Source: Leucoraja ocellata
Lineage: Eukaryota
Length of the DNA stretch: 64,000 nt
Reading direction: 5' to 3'
NCBI GenBank assembly: GCA_036785375.1
Contig: JAWMAR010000145.1
Span: 4,836,001-4,900,000, forward strand
The notes beneath the pieces are model-generated. The model was not told where the DNA came from. It was given only the letters and a program-made list of their open reading frames with translations, and searched no databases. The position numbers and the translations under genes were made by a program. The number at the start of each line of letters is the position of its first letter. The first letter of the stretch is position 1. Shown here one piece after another: positions 1,365 to 50,859 of the stretch.

Positions 1365-2175
1365 TAGAAACATTAGACAGGTGCATGGATAGGACAGGTT
1401 TGGAAGGATATGGGCCTAATGCAGGCAGGTGCTGCAACGTTTATGTCTGTGTTGGACTATGGTGATGTTTTATATATGAATGCATCTTCAAAATGCCTAC
1501 CGTCTTTGGACACGGTCTACTACGGAGCACTGAGATTTGTTACTAATTTTAAAACCCTCACGCACCACTGCTCTTTGTATGCTCAAGTTGGATGGTTTGC
1601 CCTGTCCACCCGCAGACTCCATCATTGGCATATCCTTATTTATAAGACTATCCTCGGTGTTCTTCCTTCATACCTGCAGAAGTATGTGATTTGAAAAAGC
1701 ACAGGAACTTATCAGCTCCGCTCTGAGGACTTGTTCTTACTAACTGTACCTAAAGTCCGCACTGAACTGGGGAAAAGGGCATTTAATTATGCTGCTCCCT
1801 TTGCATGGAACCAGCTGCAGAATGAACTGAAATTTAAGGAGCTGGTTTCTATAAACAGATTTAAATCCCTTCTTAATGATGTTGAAGCAGGCTCTTCTGT
1901 CTGTACATGCTTTGTTTGATGGTGTTTTGACTGTGACTATTTATATGTTCTCTGTTGTTTTTAAATTATTGTCTGTAACTGTGGAACTGTGCTGCTGCCT
2001 GTCTTGGCCAGGACTCTCTTGTAAAAGAGATTTTTAATCTCAATGAGACTTCTCCTGGTTAAATAAAGGTTAAATATAAAAAAGGTGGGGCTAATGTAGA
2101 TAGGACTTGTTGGTCGGTGTGGGCAAGTTGTGCTGAAGGTCCTGTTTCCACACTGTAGGACACTATGACTCTATG
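1365..2175 (+). mobile_element. CR1 LINE 3' end (1365-1431 + 2083-2175) split by a younger LINE insertion
   Basis: ttagacaggtgcatggatagg...ggatatgggcctaatgcaggcaggtg continues after the insert as aggtggggctaatgtagat...cctgtttccacactgtaggacactatgactctatg. Confidence 0.75.
1432..2082 (+). mobile_element. 5'-truncated L2/CR1-group LINE (ORF2 C-terminus + 3' UTR)
   Basis: ORFs 1410-1694 and 1731-1919 are one frame with a single stop (VLDYGDVLY...L.W..L..RR...VPKVRTELGKRAF.YAAP..WN.L); tail cctggttaaataaaggttaaatataaaaa; AGGTG duplicated at 1427-1431 and 2083-2087. Confidence 0.85.
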
Positions 2176-7935: not shown

Positions 7936-8033
7936 TCACGAGGGAGCAGCTGTTGTGAGTCAGATTCCTGCTGATTTCTCCCAGCAGTTTCTATTGTATT
8001 ATACTGGTATCAGATCCAGGGTAAGGCGGGAGA

Positions 8034-8966
8034 ATGACAGTCAGAGCAGTATACTGTTCTGGATGTCAGATGTGGGAGGTCATGGTGTCGGATGGCCCTC
8101 CAGACATCCACATCTGCACCAGGTGCAGCGAGATGGGGCTCCTAAGGGACCGTATTAGGATCCTGGAGCAGCAGCTCGATGACCTCGCTCTGATCAGGGA
8201 GAGTGAGGAGGTCATAGAGGGGAGTTATAGAGAGGTGGTCACTCCAAAACCACGGGAGAGAGACATGTGGGTCACGTTAAGGAAGGGCAAGGGGCAGAGG
8301 CAGGAACGAGTGAGTACTCCAATGTCGGTACACCTTGCAAATAAGTACTCCTGTTTGAGTACGGATGGGGGTGACAGCCTACCCGGGGGTAGTGACAGCG
8401 GACGGGCCTCCAGCACAGAGACCGGCCCTGTTGCTCCAAAAGCTAGGGAAAAAAAGAGTGCAATAGTAATTGGGGACTCTATTGTTAGGGGGTCGGATAG
8501 GCGATTCTGTGGATGCAGTCGGGAGACCAGGATGGTGGTCTGCCTCCCTGGTGCCAAGGTCTCGGACGTGTCTCAACGCATCCAAGATATCCTTAAATCA
8601 GAGGGAGAGGAGCCTGAGGTCGTGGTACATATAGGTACCAATGACATAGGGAAAAAAAGGGAAGAGGTCCTGAAGGGAGGATTTAGGGAGTTGGGAGGAG
8701 AGTTAAGAAAAAGGACCAAAAAGGTAACAATCTCAGGATTACTGCCTGTGCCACGCGACAGAGAGAGTAGGAATGGAGCGAGGTGGAGGATAAATGCGTG
8801 GCTGAAAGACTGGTGCAGAGGGCAGGGATTCAAGTTCCTGGATCATTGGGACTTCTTTTGGGGAAGGTGGGACCTGTACAGAAAGGATGGGTTGCACTTG
8901 AACCCGAGGGGGACCAATATCCTAGCGGGGAAATTTGCAAAGGCAGCTGGGGAGACTTTAAACTAG
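8034..8966 (+). CDS. CR1 ORF1p: zinc finger/leucine zipper + SGNH (GDSL-like) esterase
   Basis: CSGC...CTRC, heptad repeat LRDRIRILEQQLDDL, GDSIVR, HIGTND and DGLHLN motifs; open for 310 aa. Confidence 0.95.
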   Translation: MTVRAVYCSGCQMWEVMVSDGPPDIHICTRCSEMGLLRDRIRILEQQLDDLALIRESEEVIEGSYREVVTPKPRERDMWVTLRKGKGQRQERVSTPMSVHLANKYSCLSTDGGDSLPGGSDSGRASSTETGPVAPKAREKKSAIVIGDSIVRGSDRRFCGCSRETRMVVCLPGAKVSDVSQRIQDILKSEGEEPEVVVHIGTNDIGKKREEVLKGGFRELGGELRKRTKKVTISGLLPVPRDRESRNGARWRINAWLKDWCRGQGFKFLDHWDFFWGRWDLYRKDGLHLNPRGTNILAGKFAKAAGETLN

Positions 8967-11911
8967 AATGGTTGGGGCGAGGGACTCAAATAGCGAAAGG
9001 TAGTAGACAGAATGGGAGGCAGGAAGCAGAAATGGGAAGCACTCGGACACAAGAGGAGAAAGGAAAAAAAGGAAATAAACAGAGAATAAGAGACGGGGGT
9101 TTTCTTAAATGTGCATATTTTAATGCTAGGAGCATTGTAAGAAAGGTGGATGAGCTTAGAGTCTGGATAGACACCTGGAAGTATGATGTTGTGGCGATCA
9201 GTGAAACGTGGTTGCAGGAGGGCTGTGATTGGAAACTAAATATTCCAGGATTTCGTTGCTTCAGGTGTGATAGAATTGGAGGGGCAAGAGGTGGAGGTGT
9301 TGCATTGCTAGTCAGGGAAGATATTACAGCAGTGCTTTGGCAGGATAGATTGGAGGGCTCATCTAGGGAGGCTATTTGGGTGGAATTGAGAAGTGGGAAA
9401 GGTGTAGCAACACTTATAGGGGTGTATTATAGACCGCCAAACGGGGAACGAGAATTGGAAGAGCAAATATGTAAGGAGATAGCAGAGATTAGTAGTAAGC
9501 ACAAGGTAGTGATTGTGGGAGATTTCAACTTTCCACACATAGACTGGGAAACACATTCTGTAAATGGGCTGGATGGGTTGGAGTTTGTAAAATGTGTGCA
9601 GGATAGTTTTTTGCAGCAATACATAGAGGTACCTACTAGAGGAGGGGCAGTGCTGGACCTCCTGTTAGGAAATGAGACTGGACAGGTGGCGGAGGTATGC
9701 GTTGGGGAGCACTTCGGGTCCAGTGATCACAATACCATTAGTTTCAATATAACTATGGAGAGGGTCAGAACTGGACCTAGGGTTGAGATTTTTGACTGGA
9801 GAAAGGCTAACTTTGATGCGATGCGAGATGATTTAAAAGGAATGAACTGGAACATTTTGTTTTATGGGAAAGATGTAGAAGAGAAATGGAGGACATTTAA
9901 AGGGGAAATTTTAAGAGTACAGAATCTTTATGTTCCTGTTCGGTTGAAAGGAAACAGTAAAAATTGGAAAGAGCCCTGGTTTTCAAGGGAAATTGGACAT
10001 CTTGTTCGGAAAAAGAGGGAGATCTACAATAATTATAGGCAGCATGAAGTAAACGAGGTGCTTGAGGAGTATAAGGAATGTAAAAAGAATCTTAAGAAAT
10101 AAATTAGAAAAGCTAAAAGAAGATATGAGGTTGCTTTGGCAAGTAAGGTGAAAGTCAATCCAAAGGGTTTCTATAGCTATATTAATAGCAAAAGGATAAG
10201 GAGGGATAAAATTGGTCCATTGGAGAGACAGAGTGGACAGCTATCTGCAGAGCCAAAAGAGATGGGGGAGATATTGAACTTTTTTTTTTCTTCGGTATTC
10301 ACCATGGAGAAGGATATTGAATTATGTGAGGTAAGGGAAACTAGTAGAGTAGCTATGGATACTATGAGTTTCAAAGTAAATGAAGTACTGACACTTTTGA
10401 AAAATATAAAAGTGGATAAGTCTCCAGGTCCTGACAGGATATTCCCTAGGACATTGAGGGAAGTTAGTGTAGAAATAGCCGGGGCTATGACAGAAATATT
10501 TCAAATGTCATTAGAAACGGGAATAGTCCCCGAGGATTGGCGTACTGCGCATGTTGTTCCATTGTTTAAAAAGGGTTCTAAGAGTAAACCTAGCAATTAT
10601 AGACCTGTTAGTTTGACTTCAGTGGTGGGCAAATTAATGGAAAAGATACTTAGAGACAATATATATAAGCATCTAGATAAACAGGGTCTGATTAGGAACA
10701 GTCAACATGGATTTGTGCCTGGAAGGTCATGTTTGACTAATCTTCTTGAATTTTTTGAAGAGGTTACTAGGGAAATTGACGAGGGTAAAGCAGTGGATGT
10801 TGTCTATATGGACTTTAGTAAGGCCTTTGACAAGGTTCCTCATGGAAGGTTGGTTAAGAAGGTTCAACTGTTGGGTATAAATGCAGGAATAGCAAGATGG
10901 ATTCAACAGTGGCTGCATGGGAGAAGCCAGAGGGTAATGGTGGATGGCTGTTTATCGGGTTGGAGGCAGGTGACTAGTGGGGTGCCTCAGGGATCTGTGT
11001 TGGGTCCTTTGTTGTTTGTCATGTACATCAATGATTTGGATGAAGGTGTGGTAAATTGGATTAGTAAGTATGCAGATGATACCAAGATAGGGGGTGTTGT
11101 GGATAATGAAGAGGATTTCCAAAGTCTACAGAGTGATTTAGGCCATTTGGAAAAATGGGCTGAAAGATGGCAGATGGAGTTTAATGCTGATAAATGTGAG
11201 GTGCTACACCTTGGCAGGACAAATCAAAATAGGACGTACATGGTAAATGGTAGGGAATTGAAGAATACAGTTGAACAGAGGGATCTGGGTATAACCGTGC
11301 ATAGTTCCTTGAAGGTGGAATCTCATATAGATAGGGTGGTAAAGAAAGCTTTTGGTATGCTAGCCTTTATAAATCAGAGCATTGAGTATAGAAGCTGGGA
11401 TGTAATGTTAAAATTGTACAAGGCATTGGTGAGACCAAATCTGGAGTATGGTGTACAATTTTGGTCGCCAAATTATAGGAAGGATGTCAACAAAATAGAG
11501 AGAGTACAGAGGAGATTTACTAGAATGTTGCCTGGGTTTCAACAACTAAGTTACAGAGATAGGTTGAATAAGTTAGGTCTTTATTCTCTGGAGCGCAGAA
11601 GGTTAAGGGGGGACCTGATAGAGGTCTTTAAAATGATGAGAGGGATAGACAGAGTTGATGTGGACAAGCTTTTCCCTTTGAGAATAGGGAAGATTCAAAC
11701 AAGAGGACATGACTTCAGAATTAAGGGACAGAAGTTTAGGGGTAATATGAGGGGGAACTTCTTTACGCAGAGTGTGGTAGCGGTGTGGAATGAGCTCCCA
11801 GTGGAAGTGGTGGAGGCAGGTTCATTGGTATCATTTAAAAATAAATTGGATAGGCATATGGATGAGAAGGGAATGGAGGGTTATGGTATGAGTGCAGGCA
11901 GGTGGGACTAA
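8963..11911 (+). pseudogene. CR1 ORF2p: APE endonuclease + reverse transcriptase, one in-frame TAA at 10100-10102
   Basis: NARS, ISETW, YRPP, GDFN and SDH endonuclease motifs; QHGF, DFSKAFD, GVPQGSVLGP and YADD RT motifs; ORFs 8783-10102 and 10136-11911 are the same frame. Confidence 0.95.
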
Positions 11912-14661: not shown

Positions 14662-14722
14662 GCAGTTATTGTTTGGGTTTTTTCTGAGTTTTTGTTATAT
14701 TGTTTATATGATTACATATTCT

Positions 14723-14868
14723 CTTCTTCTTCTTCTTTTTCGTGTGTATGGCGTGCACAGCCTAAATTCTATTTCTATGTTCTATTTGATCTTATTTGAT
14801 TGTGCACGCCAGGTTGATTGCATTTGTTGAAACACGGGGGACCACGTGAAGGTTGCAATCTCCCATCC
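14723..14868 (-). mobile_element. 146-bp non-autonomous (GAA)n-tailed retroelement (Vingi/Ingi-like)
   Basis: Perfect 10-bp TSD TACATATTCT (14713-14722 and 14869-14878); (GAA)n tail; same tail recurs at 45127-45171. Confidence 0.8.
14817..14868 (-). ncRNA. Putative HDV-like self-cleaving ribozyme (P1 degraded in this copy)
   Basis: GGAUGGG-AG-AUUGCA-ACC-UUCACGU-GGU-CCCCCGU-G-UUUCAA-CAAA-UGCAAU follows the P1-P2-P3-L3-P3'-P1'-P4-J4/2-P2' order. Confidence 0.7.
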
Positions 14869-16164
14869 TACATATTCTGTTCTGCTGCAGCAAGTAAGAA
14901 TTTCATTGTTCTATCTGGGACATATGACAATAAAACACTCTTGACTTGACTCTTGACCCGGGTTCAACCCGACTACCGGTGCTTGTCTGTGTGCAGTTTG
15001 TACGTTCTCCCTGTGACCCGCGTGGGTTTACTCCAGGATCTCCGGTTTCCTCCCACACTCCAAAGACGTACATGTTTGTAGGTTAAATGGCTTGGTATAA
15101 ATGTAAACAGAAATTGTCCCTAATATCTATAGGATCGTGTTAATGTGTGGCGATCGCGGGTCGGTGCGGACTCAGTTAGCCGTTGGGCCTGTTTCCATGC
15201 TGTATCTCTAAACTAAACTATACTGAAACAATAAAGATTGAAGCTATGCTCAGAACCAACCAAGCAGTTACTAAAATTGTACACCACATGTTGATTGTGG
15301 CACTTTGGGCCCAATGTTTAGTTACTTACTTTGTTCTTAACATTAAACACTTAACTGAAGCCGCCCGCGTCAAGGCTAGGCCACCTAAGCACACCAGGTT
15401 CCATCCCCAAAGTACGTAAGTAAAACTGAGGGGATTTAATATCAACCTAATAGTCTTATCCCCACCAATATGAATGATAGACTTGTATTCCAAAATGTTT
15501 AATTTTTGAATTTTAAAGATCTGGCTATTTGTGGGATTTGAACTCATGATTGCTGATTGCTCCTTTAGACTCCGTAAAGTAACATAATAGCAATGTATCA
15601 CAGCGAACCAATGTATCCCCATCATTGACATAAACTGGGGGAAAATGTAAGATGCCAGGTCATGTTATGCCACTCTTCATATTTGGCCTGAAAACAGCAG
15701 AAAGCAAATTCAGAGCGAGACCTCAGTTTTGGTGCACTGGCACGCTATAAATGAATAGCATGATACATGAAAGAAAAATTGAAAATAAAGAAATCAAAAT
15801 AAATATTTCCATTAATATTTTATTTTATAGTATTTGATAGACCTGTTTTAAAAAAATAATCGGGAATGGTTTAGAAATTGTATCATTTAAATATTGGTAC
15901 TTAATCGACTTTCTTAAATAAAAGGCCCAACAATCACAGAATTGCAGTTGAAAAAGAAATGCTTTGCTTCGTGGTATTGGTTTATTATAGTCACAAGATG
16001 AGAAAACTTAGTTTTGTGTGCTATCCAGGCAAATCATACAATTATGTCAATATAATAGTCATCATTATAATAGTAAATGTTTCCTATTTATTGTGTGCCA
16101 TCCTGTTTCACTTCCATAAATGCAGCACCTCACATTTCTCGACATGCATTTCCATTCCTGTTTT

Positions 16165-34583: not shown

Positions 34584-36685
34584 GAATCGAGAATCATGAG
34601 AGTTTATTGTCATGTGTCCCTGATAGGACAATGAAATTCTTGCTTTGCTTCAGCACAACAGAATATAGTAGGCATTGACTACAAAACAGATCAGTGTGTC
34701 CATATACCATTATATAAATATATACACACATGAATAAATAAACTGATCAAGTGCAAATAACTGTTAATGGGCTATTAATGTTCAGAGTTTTGTCCGAGCC
34801 AAGTTTAATAGCCTGATGGCTGTGGACAAGTAGCTATTCCTGAACCTGGTCATAGCAGTTTTCAGGCTCCTGTACCTTTTACCTGAAGGTAGCAGGGAGA
34901 TAAGTGTGTGGCCAGGATGGTGTGGGTCCTTGATGATACTGCAAGCCTTTTTGAGGCAGCGACTGCGATAGATCGCCTCGATGGAAGGGAGGTCAGAGCC
35001 GATGATGGACTGGGCAGTGTTTACTACTTTTTGTAGTCTTTTCCTCTCCAGGGCGCTCAAGTTGCCGAACCAAGCCACGATGCAACCGGTCAGCATGCTC
35101 TGTACTGTGCACCTGTAGAAGTTAGAGAGAGTCCTCCTTGACAAACTGACTCTCCGTAATCTTCTCAGGAAGTAGAGGCGCTCATGTGCTTTCTTAATAA
35201 TTGCATCAGTGCTCTCGAACAAGGAAAGATCTTCAGAGATGTGCATGCCCAGGAATTTGAAGCTCTTGACCCTTTCAACCATCGACCCATTGATATAAAC
35301 GGCACTGTGGGTCCCCATCGTACTTCTTTCAAAGTCCACAATCAGTTCCTTGGTTTTGCTGGTATTGAGGACCAGGTTATTGTGCTGGCACCATATGGAT
35401 AGTCGCCCGAACTCTCTTCTATACTCTGACTCAACCCCATCAGTTATGCATCCTACAACAGTGGTGTCGTCAGCGAACTTGATGATGGAGTTCACACTAT
35501 GACCGGCTACGCAGTCATGAGTATAGAGTGAGTACAGCAGGGGGCTGAGCACGCAGCCTTGAGGTGCTCCCGTGCTGATTGTTATCGAGTCTGACATATT
35601 TCCACCAATTGGAACAGACTGTGGTCTGTGAATGAGGAAGTCGAGGATCCAATTGCAGGGGGATGCGCAGAGACCCAGTTCTGCGAGTTTGGTAACCAGT
35701 TTGGAGGGGATGATGATATTAAATGCCGAGCTGTAGTCAATGAATAACAGACTCATCATATGTCTCATGAAAGGAGTTTTTGTTGTCCAAGTGGTCCAGT
35801 GCGGAGTGGAGTGCCAGCAAGATTGCATCCACTGTTCATCTGTTGTGGCGGTAAGCGAACTGCAGTGGGTCCAGGTTTTTGTCGAGGTAGTTGATTTGCG
35901 CCATGATCAACCTCTCAAAGCACTTCATCACCACAGGCGTTAGTGCCACTGGTCGATAATCATTGAGGCACGTCACCTTACTCTTCTTGGGCACTGGTAT
36001 AATTGATGCCCTTTTAAAGCAGGTGGGAACCTCAAACCTCAGAAGTGAGAGGTTGAAAATGTCCATTAAAAACTCCAGCCAGTTGGTCCACACAGGTTTT
36101 TAGAACACGACAGGTATACCATCAGGTCCAGGCGCCTTTTGAGGGTTTATCCCGCTGAAGGATTTCCTGACGTCGGCCTCTGTGACTGACTGAAATACCA
36201 TCACAGCGAATGGAGGCTCAGGAAGGCACATCAGTATTCTCCCTATCAAAGCGTGCGTAAAACGCATTGTGCTCGTCAGCGAGTGATGTTTCGCCGACAT
36301 TCGAGCTGCCTCTTGATTTCGCTGTGTAGGAGGTGATTGAATTCAGGCCCCACCACAGCTGTCAAACATCTGTCTCATCCTCCAGTTTGGAGCAGAAGTC
36401 CCTTTTGGCCTTTTTGATTGTCTTACCAAGGTCGTATCTGGACTTCTTGTAGACCACTGTATCATTGGACATGAATGCCCGGTGTCTGGTCTTCAGAAGA
36501 GTGCGGATCTTAAAGTTCATCCAAGGTTTCTGATTGGGAAACACTCAGAAGGTTTTTGTAGGGATGCAGTCGTCCACAGATTTCTTTATGAAGTCTGTAA
36601 CGACTGCGGCGTATTCGTTTAAGTCCGTTACCGAGTCCTTGACATTGCCCAGTCTACAGACTCCAAACAGTTCTGGAGTTGTTCT
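34584..36685 (-). mobile_element. Rex1/Babar LINE, 5'-truncated, RT frameshifted
   Basis: [72 protein letters not shown]. Confidence 0.95.
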
Positions 36686-37560
36686 TCTGCTTTACCTTGC
36701 ACTAAAAGTTATTCCCTTATGTATCTATATACTGTAAATAGCTTGATTGTAATCATGTATTGTCTTTCCGCTGACTGGTTAACACACAACAAAATCTTTT
36801 CACTGTACCTCGGTACACGTGACAATAAACTGAAGTGAACTGGTGTAAGTTAACGATGCCTCAACCTTCAAAGTTTAATGGAGAAAGAATTTAATATTTT
36901 GAATTATTTTCATACAGTTAACAAATGAAAGAAACTCTGAGTTGAATTGGTGGCCATCTGTTTGAGAAATATTCTCTAAATGTCGTTATAATTAATGGAA
37001 AAGTCATTATAAATTCATCATTTATTAACCCCTCAATTGCACAAGCTGCAGGGGCCTATTTTGTCCTAATTGCATTCATTTGGTGCTGGCAGTAATATAG
37101 AATACAATATCGAACAAATGATCTTTTAATTTATACCAATCAGCACAGCTTGCCTACTGCTAATATCTTTTTCTGCCGTCTTGTTTTCATAGAAGAGTCA
37201 GTCTCCAAGTGAGAGACTGAGTGGGATGTATGGAAGTGGAAACGGCAGTATTGGGCTTGTTTGATTTCAAGTGTATCATGAGGTTGAATTATTTGGTCTC
37301 AAAGATAAAAATGGCAATGGTGTAGTTTTGATGTTGTTATCAGTTATAATACTGGATTGACATTTAGGTTCACTATTGTCATGTGTACAGGTTAAGAGTA
37401 ATGCTTTGTTTAGCATGCTATCCAAACAGATCACATATACCATACCTAAATACATTCAAGTCAAGCTCAAGTACTTTAGATTGAGAAAAGGGGAAAAGAG
37501 TGCAGAATATACTTCTCAGCATTGTAACATGTCAGTTCCACAGACAAAGTCCAATGTCCA

Positions 37561-38606
37561 GTGACTAGTGGGGTACCGCAAGGCTCAGTACTGGGACCCC
37601 AGCTATTTACAATATATATTAATGATCTGGATGAGGGAATTGAAGGCAATATCTCCAAGTTTGCGGATGACACTAAGCTGGGGGGCAGTGTTAGGTGTGA
37701 GGAGGATGCTAGGAGACTGCAAGGTGACTTGGATAGGCTGGGTGAGTGGGCAAATGTTTGGCAGATGCAGTTTAATGTGGATAAATGTGAGGTTATCCAT
37801 TTTGGTGGCAAAAACGGGAAAGCAGATTATTATCTAAACGGTGGCCGATTGGGAAAGGGGGAGATGCAGAGAGACCTGGGTGTCATGGTACACCAGTCAT
37901 TGAAGGTAGGCATGCAGGTGCAGCAGGCAGTAAAGAAAGCGAATGGCATGTTGGCTTTCATAGCAAGAGGATTTGAGTATAGGAGCAGGGAGGTTCTACT
38001 GCAGTTGTATAGGGTCTTGGTGAGACCACACCTGGAGTATTGCGTGCAGTTTTGGTCTCCAAATCTGAGGAAGGACATTATTGCCATAGAGGGCGTGCAG
38101 AGAAGGTTCACCAGACTGATTCCTGGGATGTCAGGACTGTCTTATGAAGAAAGACTGGATAGACTTGGTTTATACTCTCTAGAGTTTAGGAGATTGAGAG
38201 GGGATCTTATAGAAACTTACAAAATTCTTAAGGGGTTGGACAGGCTAGATGCAGGAAGATTGTTTCCGATGTTGGGGAAGTCCAGGACAAGGGGTCACAG
38301 CTTAAGGATAAGGGGGAAATCCTTTAAAACCGAGATGAGGAGAACTTTTTTCACACAGAGAGTGGTGAATCTCTGGAACTCTCTGCCACAGAGGGTAGTT
38401 GAGGCCAGTTCATTGGCTATATTTAAGAGGGCGTTAGATGTGGCCCTTGTGGCCAAGGGGATCAGAGGGTATGGAGAAAAGGCAGGTACGGGATACTGAG
38501 TTGGATGATCAGCCATGGTCATATTAAATGGCGGTGCAGGCTCGAAGGGCCGAATGGCCTACTCCTGCACCTAATTTCTATGTTTCTATGTTTCTATGTT
38601 TCTATG
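37561..38606 (+). mobile_element. Young 5'-truncated CR1 (uninterrupted 312-codon RT C-terminus) inserted into a LINE tail
   Basis: GVPQGSVLGP...FADD; (TTTCTATG)n tail; ATGTCCA at 37554-37560 and 38604-38610. Confidence 0.95.
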
Positions 38607-45126: not shown

Positions 45127-45171
45127 CTTCTTCTTCTTGCGTATGGCGTGCACAGCCTAAAGTTGTAGGTC
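45127..45171 (-). mobile_element. 3' tail of the Vingi-like short element
   Basis: ttcttcttcttgcgtatggcgtgcacagcctaaa matches 14723-14766. Confidence 0.75.
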
Positions 45172-45339
45172 AAGGGTAGACACCCAGGCAAGGACAGCAT
45201 CAGTTACTGGGTGGATGGCTTTGATGACAGCAGGAAATAGCCTCAGTGAGCAGTCATTCACAATGTGTGGGATGGGATGGTCTGGTCTGGATGTCCGCAG
45301 TCGCAAGCAGGGCTGTCTGTCATCCCCCACTTATGCAGA

Positions 45340-45580
45340 TGATTTTTCACACAGAGAGTTGTGAGTCTGGAATTCTCTGCCTCAGAGGGCGATGGAGGCC
45401 AGTTCTCCAGATACTTTCAAGAGAGAGCGAGATAGGGCTCTTACAGATAGCAGAGTCAGGGGATATGGGGGAAAAGGCAGGAATGGGGTACTGATTGGGG
45501 AAGATCAGCCATGATCATATTGAATGGCGGTGCTGGCTCGAAGGATGGCCTAATCCCGCACCTATTGTCTATTGTCTATG
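45340..45580 (+). mobile_element. CR1 3' fragment
   Basis: acacagagagttgtgagtctggaattc...cctattgtctattgtct. Confidence 0.85.
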
Positions 45581-49285: not shown

Positions 49286-50155
49286 AGTCATAGAGTAACA
49301 CAGTGTGGAAACAGGCCCTTCGGCCCAATTCGCACGCACCAGCCAACAATGTCCCATCTACCCTAGTCCCACTTGCCTGCGCTTGGACCATAAACCTCCA
49401 AACCTGTCCTATCCATGTACCTGTCCAACTGTTTCTTAAACAATGGGATAGTCCCAGCCTCAACTACCTCCTCTGGCAGCTTGTTCATACACCCACCACC
49501 CTCTGTGTGAAAAAATAACCCCTAGGATTTCTATTCAATCTTTTACCCTTCACCTTGAACCTATGTCCTCTGGTCCTCGATTCCCCTTCTCTGAGTAAAA
49601 GACTCTGTGCATCTACCCGATCTATTCCTCTCATGATTTTTTTTACCTCTATAAGACCTCCCACATCCTCCTACGCTCCATGGAATAGGGAACCAGCCTA
49701 CTTAACCTCTCCCTATAGCTCACACCCTCTAGTCCTGGCAACATCCTCGTAAATCTTTTCTGAACCCTTTTAAGCTTGACAATATCTTTCCTATAACATC
49801 ATGCCCAGAACTGAAAACAATATTCTAAATGCAGTCTCACCAACACCTTATACAACTGCAACATGACCTCCCAACTTCTATACTCAATACTCTGACTGAT
49901 GAAGGCCAAAGTGCCAAAAGCCTTTTTGACCACCTTATCTACCTGCGACTTGACCTTCATGGAACCATGCACTTGTACTCCTGGATCCCTTTGCTCTACA
50001 ACACTACTCAGAGGCCTACCATTTACTGTGTAAGTCCTGCCCTTGTTCGACGTTCCAAAACGCAACACCTCACACTTCTCTGTATTAAATTCCATCAACC
50101 ATTCCTCCGCCCACCTGGTCAATCGATCCAGATCTTGCAGCAATCCTTCACCTTT
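49286..50155 (-). mobile_element. CR1 3' fragment
   Basis: ORF 49799-50251 WLMEFNTEKCEV...VVKKAFGTLAFI...LEYC.QFW. Confidence 0.9.
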
Positions 50156-50859
50156 GGCCAATCGACCTTTGGAGAGTCCAATGTAGTTTACAGCAACAAA
50201 ATACTGATCTGTTGTAATTGTCGTTAGCAGTGTAGGAAACATTGGAACCAAGACTAACCAGACTTTATTCTGGCATAGTGAGGTAGCACTGTCACCGCAC
50301 CGCCCTGTTGTTTAATTAGACAGTATTGCTGTCTAATTTTTATGTTCACAATGAGACGTTTGAGTCTATGAACTTCTAACTCTCAGAACTACCACTGAGC
50401 AATTTTCCCAAAAACACTCTCTTAATTATACTTCCTTTTCCAAACGTGGCCAGGTTATATCTGGTAGATCTGTGGAAACAAAATACATTCAATGGGGTAC
50501 TGGACCCTGTAATAGTAATGGTAAACAGTTAAAAGTGTATAAATCCATCACTTTGCGTCTATTCCAGGAGACAATTTTGCACTGAGTTAACTGAGGAATG
50601 TAACTCAATATAATGATTTTAGGACATGATTACTAATGGCAAGATATTAAGATCACATCATTTAAAGCAATAAAATAAATATCTATCACAGGACTGTAAT
50701 TTATCGAAGAGATTTGAATGTCATTGTGCACAGAACTCCAATGTTTGTTCAGCAATCTAAATCCCATTCTGGTATCAAGATCCTGGACACATCCTTTACA
50801 TATGTAGCTGATCGATGAATGAACAATTTTGGCTCATAGTTTTGTGCACTGAAATAAGG

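Follow-up and report, generated by a model that had tools for sequence, protein, structure and literature searches.

The minus strand of a 64,000-nucleotide stretch of Leucoraja ocellata DNA (the window; contig JAWMAR010000145.1, positions 4,836,001 to 4,900,000) carries a short (GAA)n-tailed element whose first bases resemble an HDV-like ribozyme, which raises the question of what this element is and what sets its 5' end. An earlier note, made from the letters alone, had described it as a 146-bp insertion; this description is borne out by the sequence (Table 1), and in L233 a host site without the insertion backs the 10-bp target-site duplication around it. The element lies antisense, just past a decayed LINE ORF that resembles one at 34782-35906 and that we take to be Rex1/Babar. 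Elsewhere in the window, a nearly complete LINE, presumably CR1-like, whose two ORFs stay open over long stretches, occupies 8025-11911 (plus strand), with more fragments at 37528-38499 and 49799-50311.

Table 1. Coordinates of the short element, of its predicted ribozyme and of related copies (window positions unless a locus is named; p, consensus position)
Feature	Position	Strand	Remark
Short non-autonomous element, window copy	14723..14868	-	consensus positions 2 to tail; 89% identity to near-consensus copy L216
Predicted 54-nt HDV-like ribozyme region	14816..14869	-	p = 14870 - window position; position 1 (14869) is a host A
P1 5' strand, positions 1-7	14863..14869	-	partner 14840-14834; 3 mismatches in window copy; consensus pairs 7/7
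P2 5' strand, positions 10-16	14854..14860	-	partner 14822-14816; 7/7 paired
P3 (17-19 with 27-29) and L3 (20-26)	14841..14853	-	C22-G37 (14833) possible as one-pair P1.1
P1 3' strand, positions 30-36	14834..14840	-	2 substitutions relative to consensus
J1.1/4, stub replacing P4, J4/2	14823..14833	-	predicted catalytic C44 at 14826; P1-to-C spacing 7 nt
Part from parent LINE 5' end (about first 81 nt)	14789..14868	-	from alignment of L216 to LINE copy L173
11-bp inverted repeat closing the body	5' arm 14801..14811; 3' arm 14759-14749	-	
Part from parent LINE 3' end, with ORF stop codon (14764-14762) and 3' UTR	14732..14766	-	
(GAA)n tail	14723..14740	-	
Target-site duplication, 5' copy, 10 bp	14869..14878	-	
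Target-site duplication, 3' copy	14713..14722	-	
5'-truncated parent LINE copy (ORF end, 3' UTR, GAA tail)	45127..45343	-	91% identity to L101
Family B copies	L362:93-3230 (G000:C82), L364, L346, L350		
Family C	L333-L338, L345, ~1490-1690		duplication in L337

The element belongs to a multi-copy family, as had been supposed. A 26-mer from its middle has at least 4,200 exact matches against 0 for the control (3.44-Gb genome), a count that misses mutated copies and includes duplicated loci; the initial genome scan had returned 1,270 candidates, which is above chance. We sampled 70 copies chosen by their middle only and removed 10 duplicates, and the remaining 60 distinct copies have a mean identity to the consensus of 95.4%, a value biased upward by the exact-match selection. 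Their 5' ends pile up at the first base of the family consensus (G1), a behaviour that the earlier note had named as a check. Alignments begin at position 1 in 43 copies, at 2 in 6 and at 3 in 3 (52/60 from positions 1-3), the rest starting at position 6 (1 copy) or at positions 13-81 (7 copies). An exact target-site duplication, with a median length of 11 bp, was recovered for 36 of the 53 near-full copies (17 yielded none): 13 end at G1 and 11 overlap it by 1-2 target Gs (24/36 together), while 12 stop 1-10 nt before it. The target-G overlap at so many junctions suggests microhomology at the 5' junction. In four public runs (organisms A-D), loose contig ends likewise heap at G1 and the preceding base (for example 193 and 313 contigs ending at G1, among the best-supported rows); these are assembled contigs, which cannot show transcript starts or expression. 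Immediately before G1, the 53 copies have T 26 times, G 17 times and C only 4 times. A repeated variant (L034; L110:285-360, minus strand) carries the head to about position 31 followed by unrelated sequence, and is probably a truncated insertion amplified within another repeat.

We then asked where head and tail come from. Searching the genome with patterns that leave out the middle of the short element, first by the common 3' end and then by the common head, located a LINE that shares both its head and its tail, the kind of Vingi-like partner that had been anticipated. This LINE is ~3.1 kb long, with a single ORF whose pieces match APE and RT domains; the common head lies ~105 nt ahead of the APE domain, and the ORF stop falls within the stretch that the two 3' ends have in common. 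When aligned to it, the short element matches the first 81 nt and the last 45 nt (42/45 identical), and ~13 nt of the middle derive from neither end. Two copies of the LINE (L171, L172) hold the head and the tail 2.8 kb apart within one duplication, with an internal deletion. LINE copies are 84-93% identical pairwise, and the 10 long copies examined are all broken, so that no active partner was met among them. The closest intact protein (P0002; 1,019 aa) is 67% identical to the parent ORF and the next-closest are 39-49% identical, named insect proteins among them. For one relative at 42% identity (P0112), encoded on a 3.5-kb contig, the database entry names the cyanobacterium Moorena sp., which is likely contamination.

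APE and RT domains are present in 37/37 aligned relatives, and RNase H was found in none of these 37 nor in 5 parent ORF pieces. Vingi elements are defined, in the accessible text of PMC13708176, by a compact single ORF with APE and RT and no RNase H, and the parent fits this definition. Searches of PDB sequences, which retrieved nothing beyond RTs of the L1, R2 and group II kinds, and of the ESM atlas, with unnamed RT clusters only, named no clade, and we call the LINE Vingi-like on domain content and on the likeness of its sister family B, described below, to Vingi-2_Gav. Judged by its sequence, the short element derives from a Vingi-like LINE by internal deletion, with the first ~81 and the last ~35-45 bases retained. 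The SINE-like family of the earlier note is thus better termed a bipartite non-autonomous LINE in the sense of the available portions of PMC4494074 and PMC5786205, as only the two ends of an autonomous LINE make it up and it has no ORF. The absence of a tRNA head or A/B box does hold (ARAGORN, 0 genes; loose patterns, 0 in a near-consensus copy), and in the window copy and 5 near-consensus copies Rfam gives no match to the tRNA, 5S, 7SL or snRNA head by which a SINE is recognised. That the element might still be a SINE proper, whose Pol III head has escaped recognition and whose fold is a coincidence, is in keeping with its size and copy number but highly improbable: the head derives from the 5' end of the LINE itself, so that the alignment to the LINE largely refutes this reading, no tRNA or A/B box is present, and compensatory changes keep the fold in relatives (below). 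An 11-bp inverted repeat connects the 5'- and 3'-derived parts; it differs by one change from the LINE and pairs better in the short element. The junction has a second small hairpin, which is replaced in the window copy.

The head itself had been drawn from a G1 that proves to be wrong by one base, the family starting one G further 5', at 14869. Counted from there, P1 is paired in 93.1% of cells across 53 copies, compared to 65.7% in the earlier register, which we rejected since two of its columns fail (paired in 5/52 and 0/51). The claimed coincidence of the cleavage site with the insertion boundary therefore stands for the family and falls for the window copy, where the boundary is one base inside the ribozyme; there, the host duplication ends with the A at 14869 and the G1-U wobble that had been read is absent. 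P2 pairs perfectly as described, over 7 bp rather than 6. The other features listed in the note are found in the window sequence: P3 pairs, L3 is as noted, P4 is minimal, a C occupies the predicted catalytic position and P1 has three mismatches. Because it lacks G1 and carries these mismatches, the window copy is probably inactive; its P1 and P3 together reach -0.1 kcal/mol, against -12.4 in the consensus, and the segment from J1.1/4 to J4/2 holds two CpG-type G-to-A changes.

In the family consensus P1 is restored, as it had to be if the fold were real according to the earlier note, and the UUCG loop and CGAA junction that it had foreseen are both there. The consensus head pairs at 7/7 positions in P1 (with a G1-U36 wobble), 7/7 in P2 and 3/3 in P3, and its core comprises G1-U36, an L3 equal to the Rfam CPEB3 consensus, a single C22-G37 pair and C44. 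The minimum-energy fold of these 54 nt is exactly P1 plus P3 (-12.4 kcal/mol), and we predict from this modelling an HDV-like double pseudoknot in which P1 pairs throughout and P4 is all but missing. Neither the short-element consensus nor that of the LINE has lost a helix or a core base (position 32 differs between the two with the pair retained), and every pair and core base is retained in 15/60 copies. The head contains four CpGs, located in L3, P1', the P4 stub and the predicted catalytic C, and these have changed at a rate of 17.5% compared to 3.9% elsewhere; beyond CpG decay, variants are frequent at position 8, which lies in J1/2, and at position 45, which follows the C.

The proposed scan with Rfam HDV-like models leaves the head unrecognised, with no ribozyme match in the window copy or in 5 near-consensus copies. 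In a pseudoknot-free model of full-length L216, bases 2-5 pair with 56-59 instead of forming P1. The spacing from P1 to the C is 7 nt in the family (the parent stub is identical) and 18-53 nt in 15 relatives, and because P4 is reduced to this 7-nt stub the activity of the head may be low. The absent Rfam score and the short P4 also speak for another account of the same origin, in which the fold, lacking P4, has little or no activity throughout the family and G1 marks the start from an internal Pol II promoter in the 5' end of the LINE; such a promoter, too, would be expected to give precise 5' ends. A cap may leave a single extra G before the 5' end of an insertion, and this was seen in 0 clean-duplication junctions, a weak point against a promoter start. 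As far as the available part of PMC4035085 goes, L1Tc and NARTc heads function as promoters and some well-folded SIDER heads failed to cleave. We nevertheless hold a weak or dead fold to be unlikely, since both consensus sequences retain every helix and core base and P4-less HDV-like ribozymes cleave in vitro (PMC10879173, partial text). The L1Tc/NARTc head is promoter and ribozyme both (PMC4035085), so that a ribozyme head, which we prefer, need not make the family promoter-less, as the earlier note had it.

Relatives of the LINE share the fold, with compensatory changes, as far as sequence comparison can tell. From 80 metagenome loci, 50 had a match starting in the first 50 residues, and 42 upstream regions were kept after dropping 8 late-starting contigs. 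A strict fold descriptor hits 7/42 of these regions (3/126 shuffles), and a relaxed descriptor, tuned after inspection of the sequences, hits 17/42 (0/168 shuffles), the distance from the fold to the expected start of the ORF being 14-104 nt; the other 25 give no hit with the relaxed descriptor either. Among the fold-bearing relatives, a selected set from which the near-duplicates L297 and L311 were removed before pair counts, changes on both sides occur at 10/15 pair positions (a MAFFT alignment of 8 heads, in which P2' failed to align, was left out of the counts). A partner shuffle gives 96.7% paired versus 71.4%, a circular comparison as the helices had been picked for pairing. When 16 chosen relatives were run against Rfam, a check that does not depend on the descriptor, 6 matched CPEB3_ribozyme and 1 HDV-F-prausnitzii, all below the cut-off. 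At the foot of P4, seven loci (L253, L273, L276, L295, L300, L302 and L309) have in common an internal loop rich in purines, presumably akin to the loop-E motif.

Within the genome, matches to RF00622 above the cut-off were obtained for 56/59 scored candidates, and for 0 in 14 control genomes; 30 loci, from two overlapping candidate sets, were inspected. Family B is a young Vingi-like LINE of 3.12 kb that duplications bound exactly at G1 (L362, L364), and its exact 5' end scores 56-65 bits (maximum 64.7, above cut-off) on RF00622, 'Mammalian CPEB3 ribozyme'. Copies are 96-97.5% alike pairwise, with ORFs broken in 8/8 examined, and the protein is 37% identical to P0002 over 1,015 aa. Family C, ~190 bp long and GAA-tailed, is a second short element; it too has an HDV-like head, where compensatory changes have flipped P1. 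Family D (L351, L356, L360, from ~1512) has a third CPEB3-type head, with an altered P2, in short deleted copies, and this head reads as preceding an APE start.

The existence of family B bears on which protein moved the short element. Another LINE, such as this younger sister, could have done so instead of the parent, given that all parent copies examined are broken and that family B, with its higher pairwise identity, also ends in GAA repeats. We regard this as very unlikely, however: the 3' end of family B differs from the parent's, which the last 45 nt of the short element match at 42 positions, and the ~95% identity of short copies to their consensus fits the 84-93% pairwise identity of parent copies. 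The parent itself remains our preferred source of the protein.

Family B also points beyond this genome. Its 5' end agrees by eye with that of the printed Vingi-2_Gav (3,128 nt) at 43/50 positions (33/38 + 10/12). Nucleotides 2-74 of this gharial element are printed in the supplement of PMC5786205, and nt 2-72 agree, again by eye, with the Rfam CPEB3 consensus at 48/50 positions outside P4 (36/38 + 12/12), far above what the six invariant bases of the HDV-like fold (PMC8256844, partial text) explain. The same supplement shows an altered copy of the Vingi-2_Gav 5' end behind the tRNA head of alligator SINE2-1_AMi. In the available portion of PMC5786205, CPEB3 is absent from the main text and Vingi from the list of ribozyme clades; Vingi traces are present in the human genome (PMC5753468, available part). 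On balance we favour the view that the Vingi clade starts with an HDV-like ribozyme, that ribozyme-headed miniatures arose from it more than once here (the short family having the 54-nt P4-less form), and that the mammalian CPEB3 ribozyme is a domesticated Vingi-2-type 5' end. Such an origin appears likely for the CPEB3 ribozyme because sister family B begins with a close match to it, the direction of descent being read from family B and Vingi-2_Gav rather than from the CPEB3 locus.

What is directly observed, the two-part anatomy, the common head and tail, the duplications, the pile-up of 5' ends at G1, the complete pairing of P1 to P3 in the consensus and its recurrence with altered sequence in relatives, leads us to a mechanism that we consider probable and that is modelled on R2 and L1Tc/NARTc (PMC4035085 and PMC8256844, both in part). 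Transcription would begin at a host promoter lying upstream or at an internal one; the first 54 bases of the element would fold as a pseudoknot and cleave the transcript just before G1. The parent protein, acting in trans, would bind the 3' UTR and GAA tail and copy the RNA by target-primed reverse transcription at an APE nick. Insertion leaves duplications of ~11 bp, and CpG decay would then disable most copies.

Ribozyme-headed deleted LINEs as such are already known from NARTc and the R2 SIDEs, and by analogy the short element may work like either. NARTc, RIME and SIDER of trypanosomatids (Ingi clade, with the Pr77 hallmark; PMC4035085, partial text) are likewise short deleted LINEs with an HDV-like 5' end, and Ingi is the sister clade of Vingi. 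The NARTc parent has an RNase H, however, and its 77-nt head was shown to cleave and to promote, whereas the short family has a predicted head of 54 nt with no real P4, and an animal host. R2 SIDEs, as the available parts of PMC3414825 and PMC4035085 present them, also combine a ribozyme head with the parent's 3' end in a deleted LINE, but R2 has a restriction-like endonuclease and a 28S rDNA target, while the short family is APE-type and dispersed. Internal deletion that keeps both ends is seen in Vingi derivatives as well (Vingi-1_EE; the Vingi-2_ACar parts in SINE2-1_ACar; PMC5786205 and PMC4494074, in part); unlike these, the short family adds no tRNA head. With the CPEB3 ribozyme (RF00622) the head has in common the numbering to U38, L3, the one-pair P1.1 and the CGAA junction, and it differs in its stem sequences, in lacking P4 and in having no score on the model. 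The P4 domain is likewise absent from minimal HDV-like ribozymes (drz-Mtgn-1, theta), but according to the accessible text of PMC10879173 these are nearly 99% phage-borne and tRNA-linked, whereas here the fold heads an animal retrotransposon.

What appears to be new is the Vingi clade as the setting, the lack of P4 in a large animal genome and a 5' end that scores as CPEB3 in a sister LINE. The open-access literature gave no link between Vingi and a ribozyme, no P4-less animal form and no connection of CPEB3 with Vingi, though Ruminski 2011, Kojima 2011, Repbase and Dfam may hold part of this. Vingi-1 5' UTRs are employed in gene-writing platforms (PMC13708176, available part), and if they self-cleave too, this would have consequences for capping and template design there. 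For an animal, a natural HDV-like ribozyme of 54 nt that lacks P4 would, if true, be unusual, because such forms have been reported almost only from phages (PMC10879173, in part). With the sister families at hand, the origin of the CPEB3 ribozyme can be put to a direct test. For the elements themselves, the findings would add the Vingi clade to those whose 5' ends are defined by a ribozyme, and offer a model for how a 150-bp element may reach thousands of copies in an animal genome without a Pol III head.
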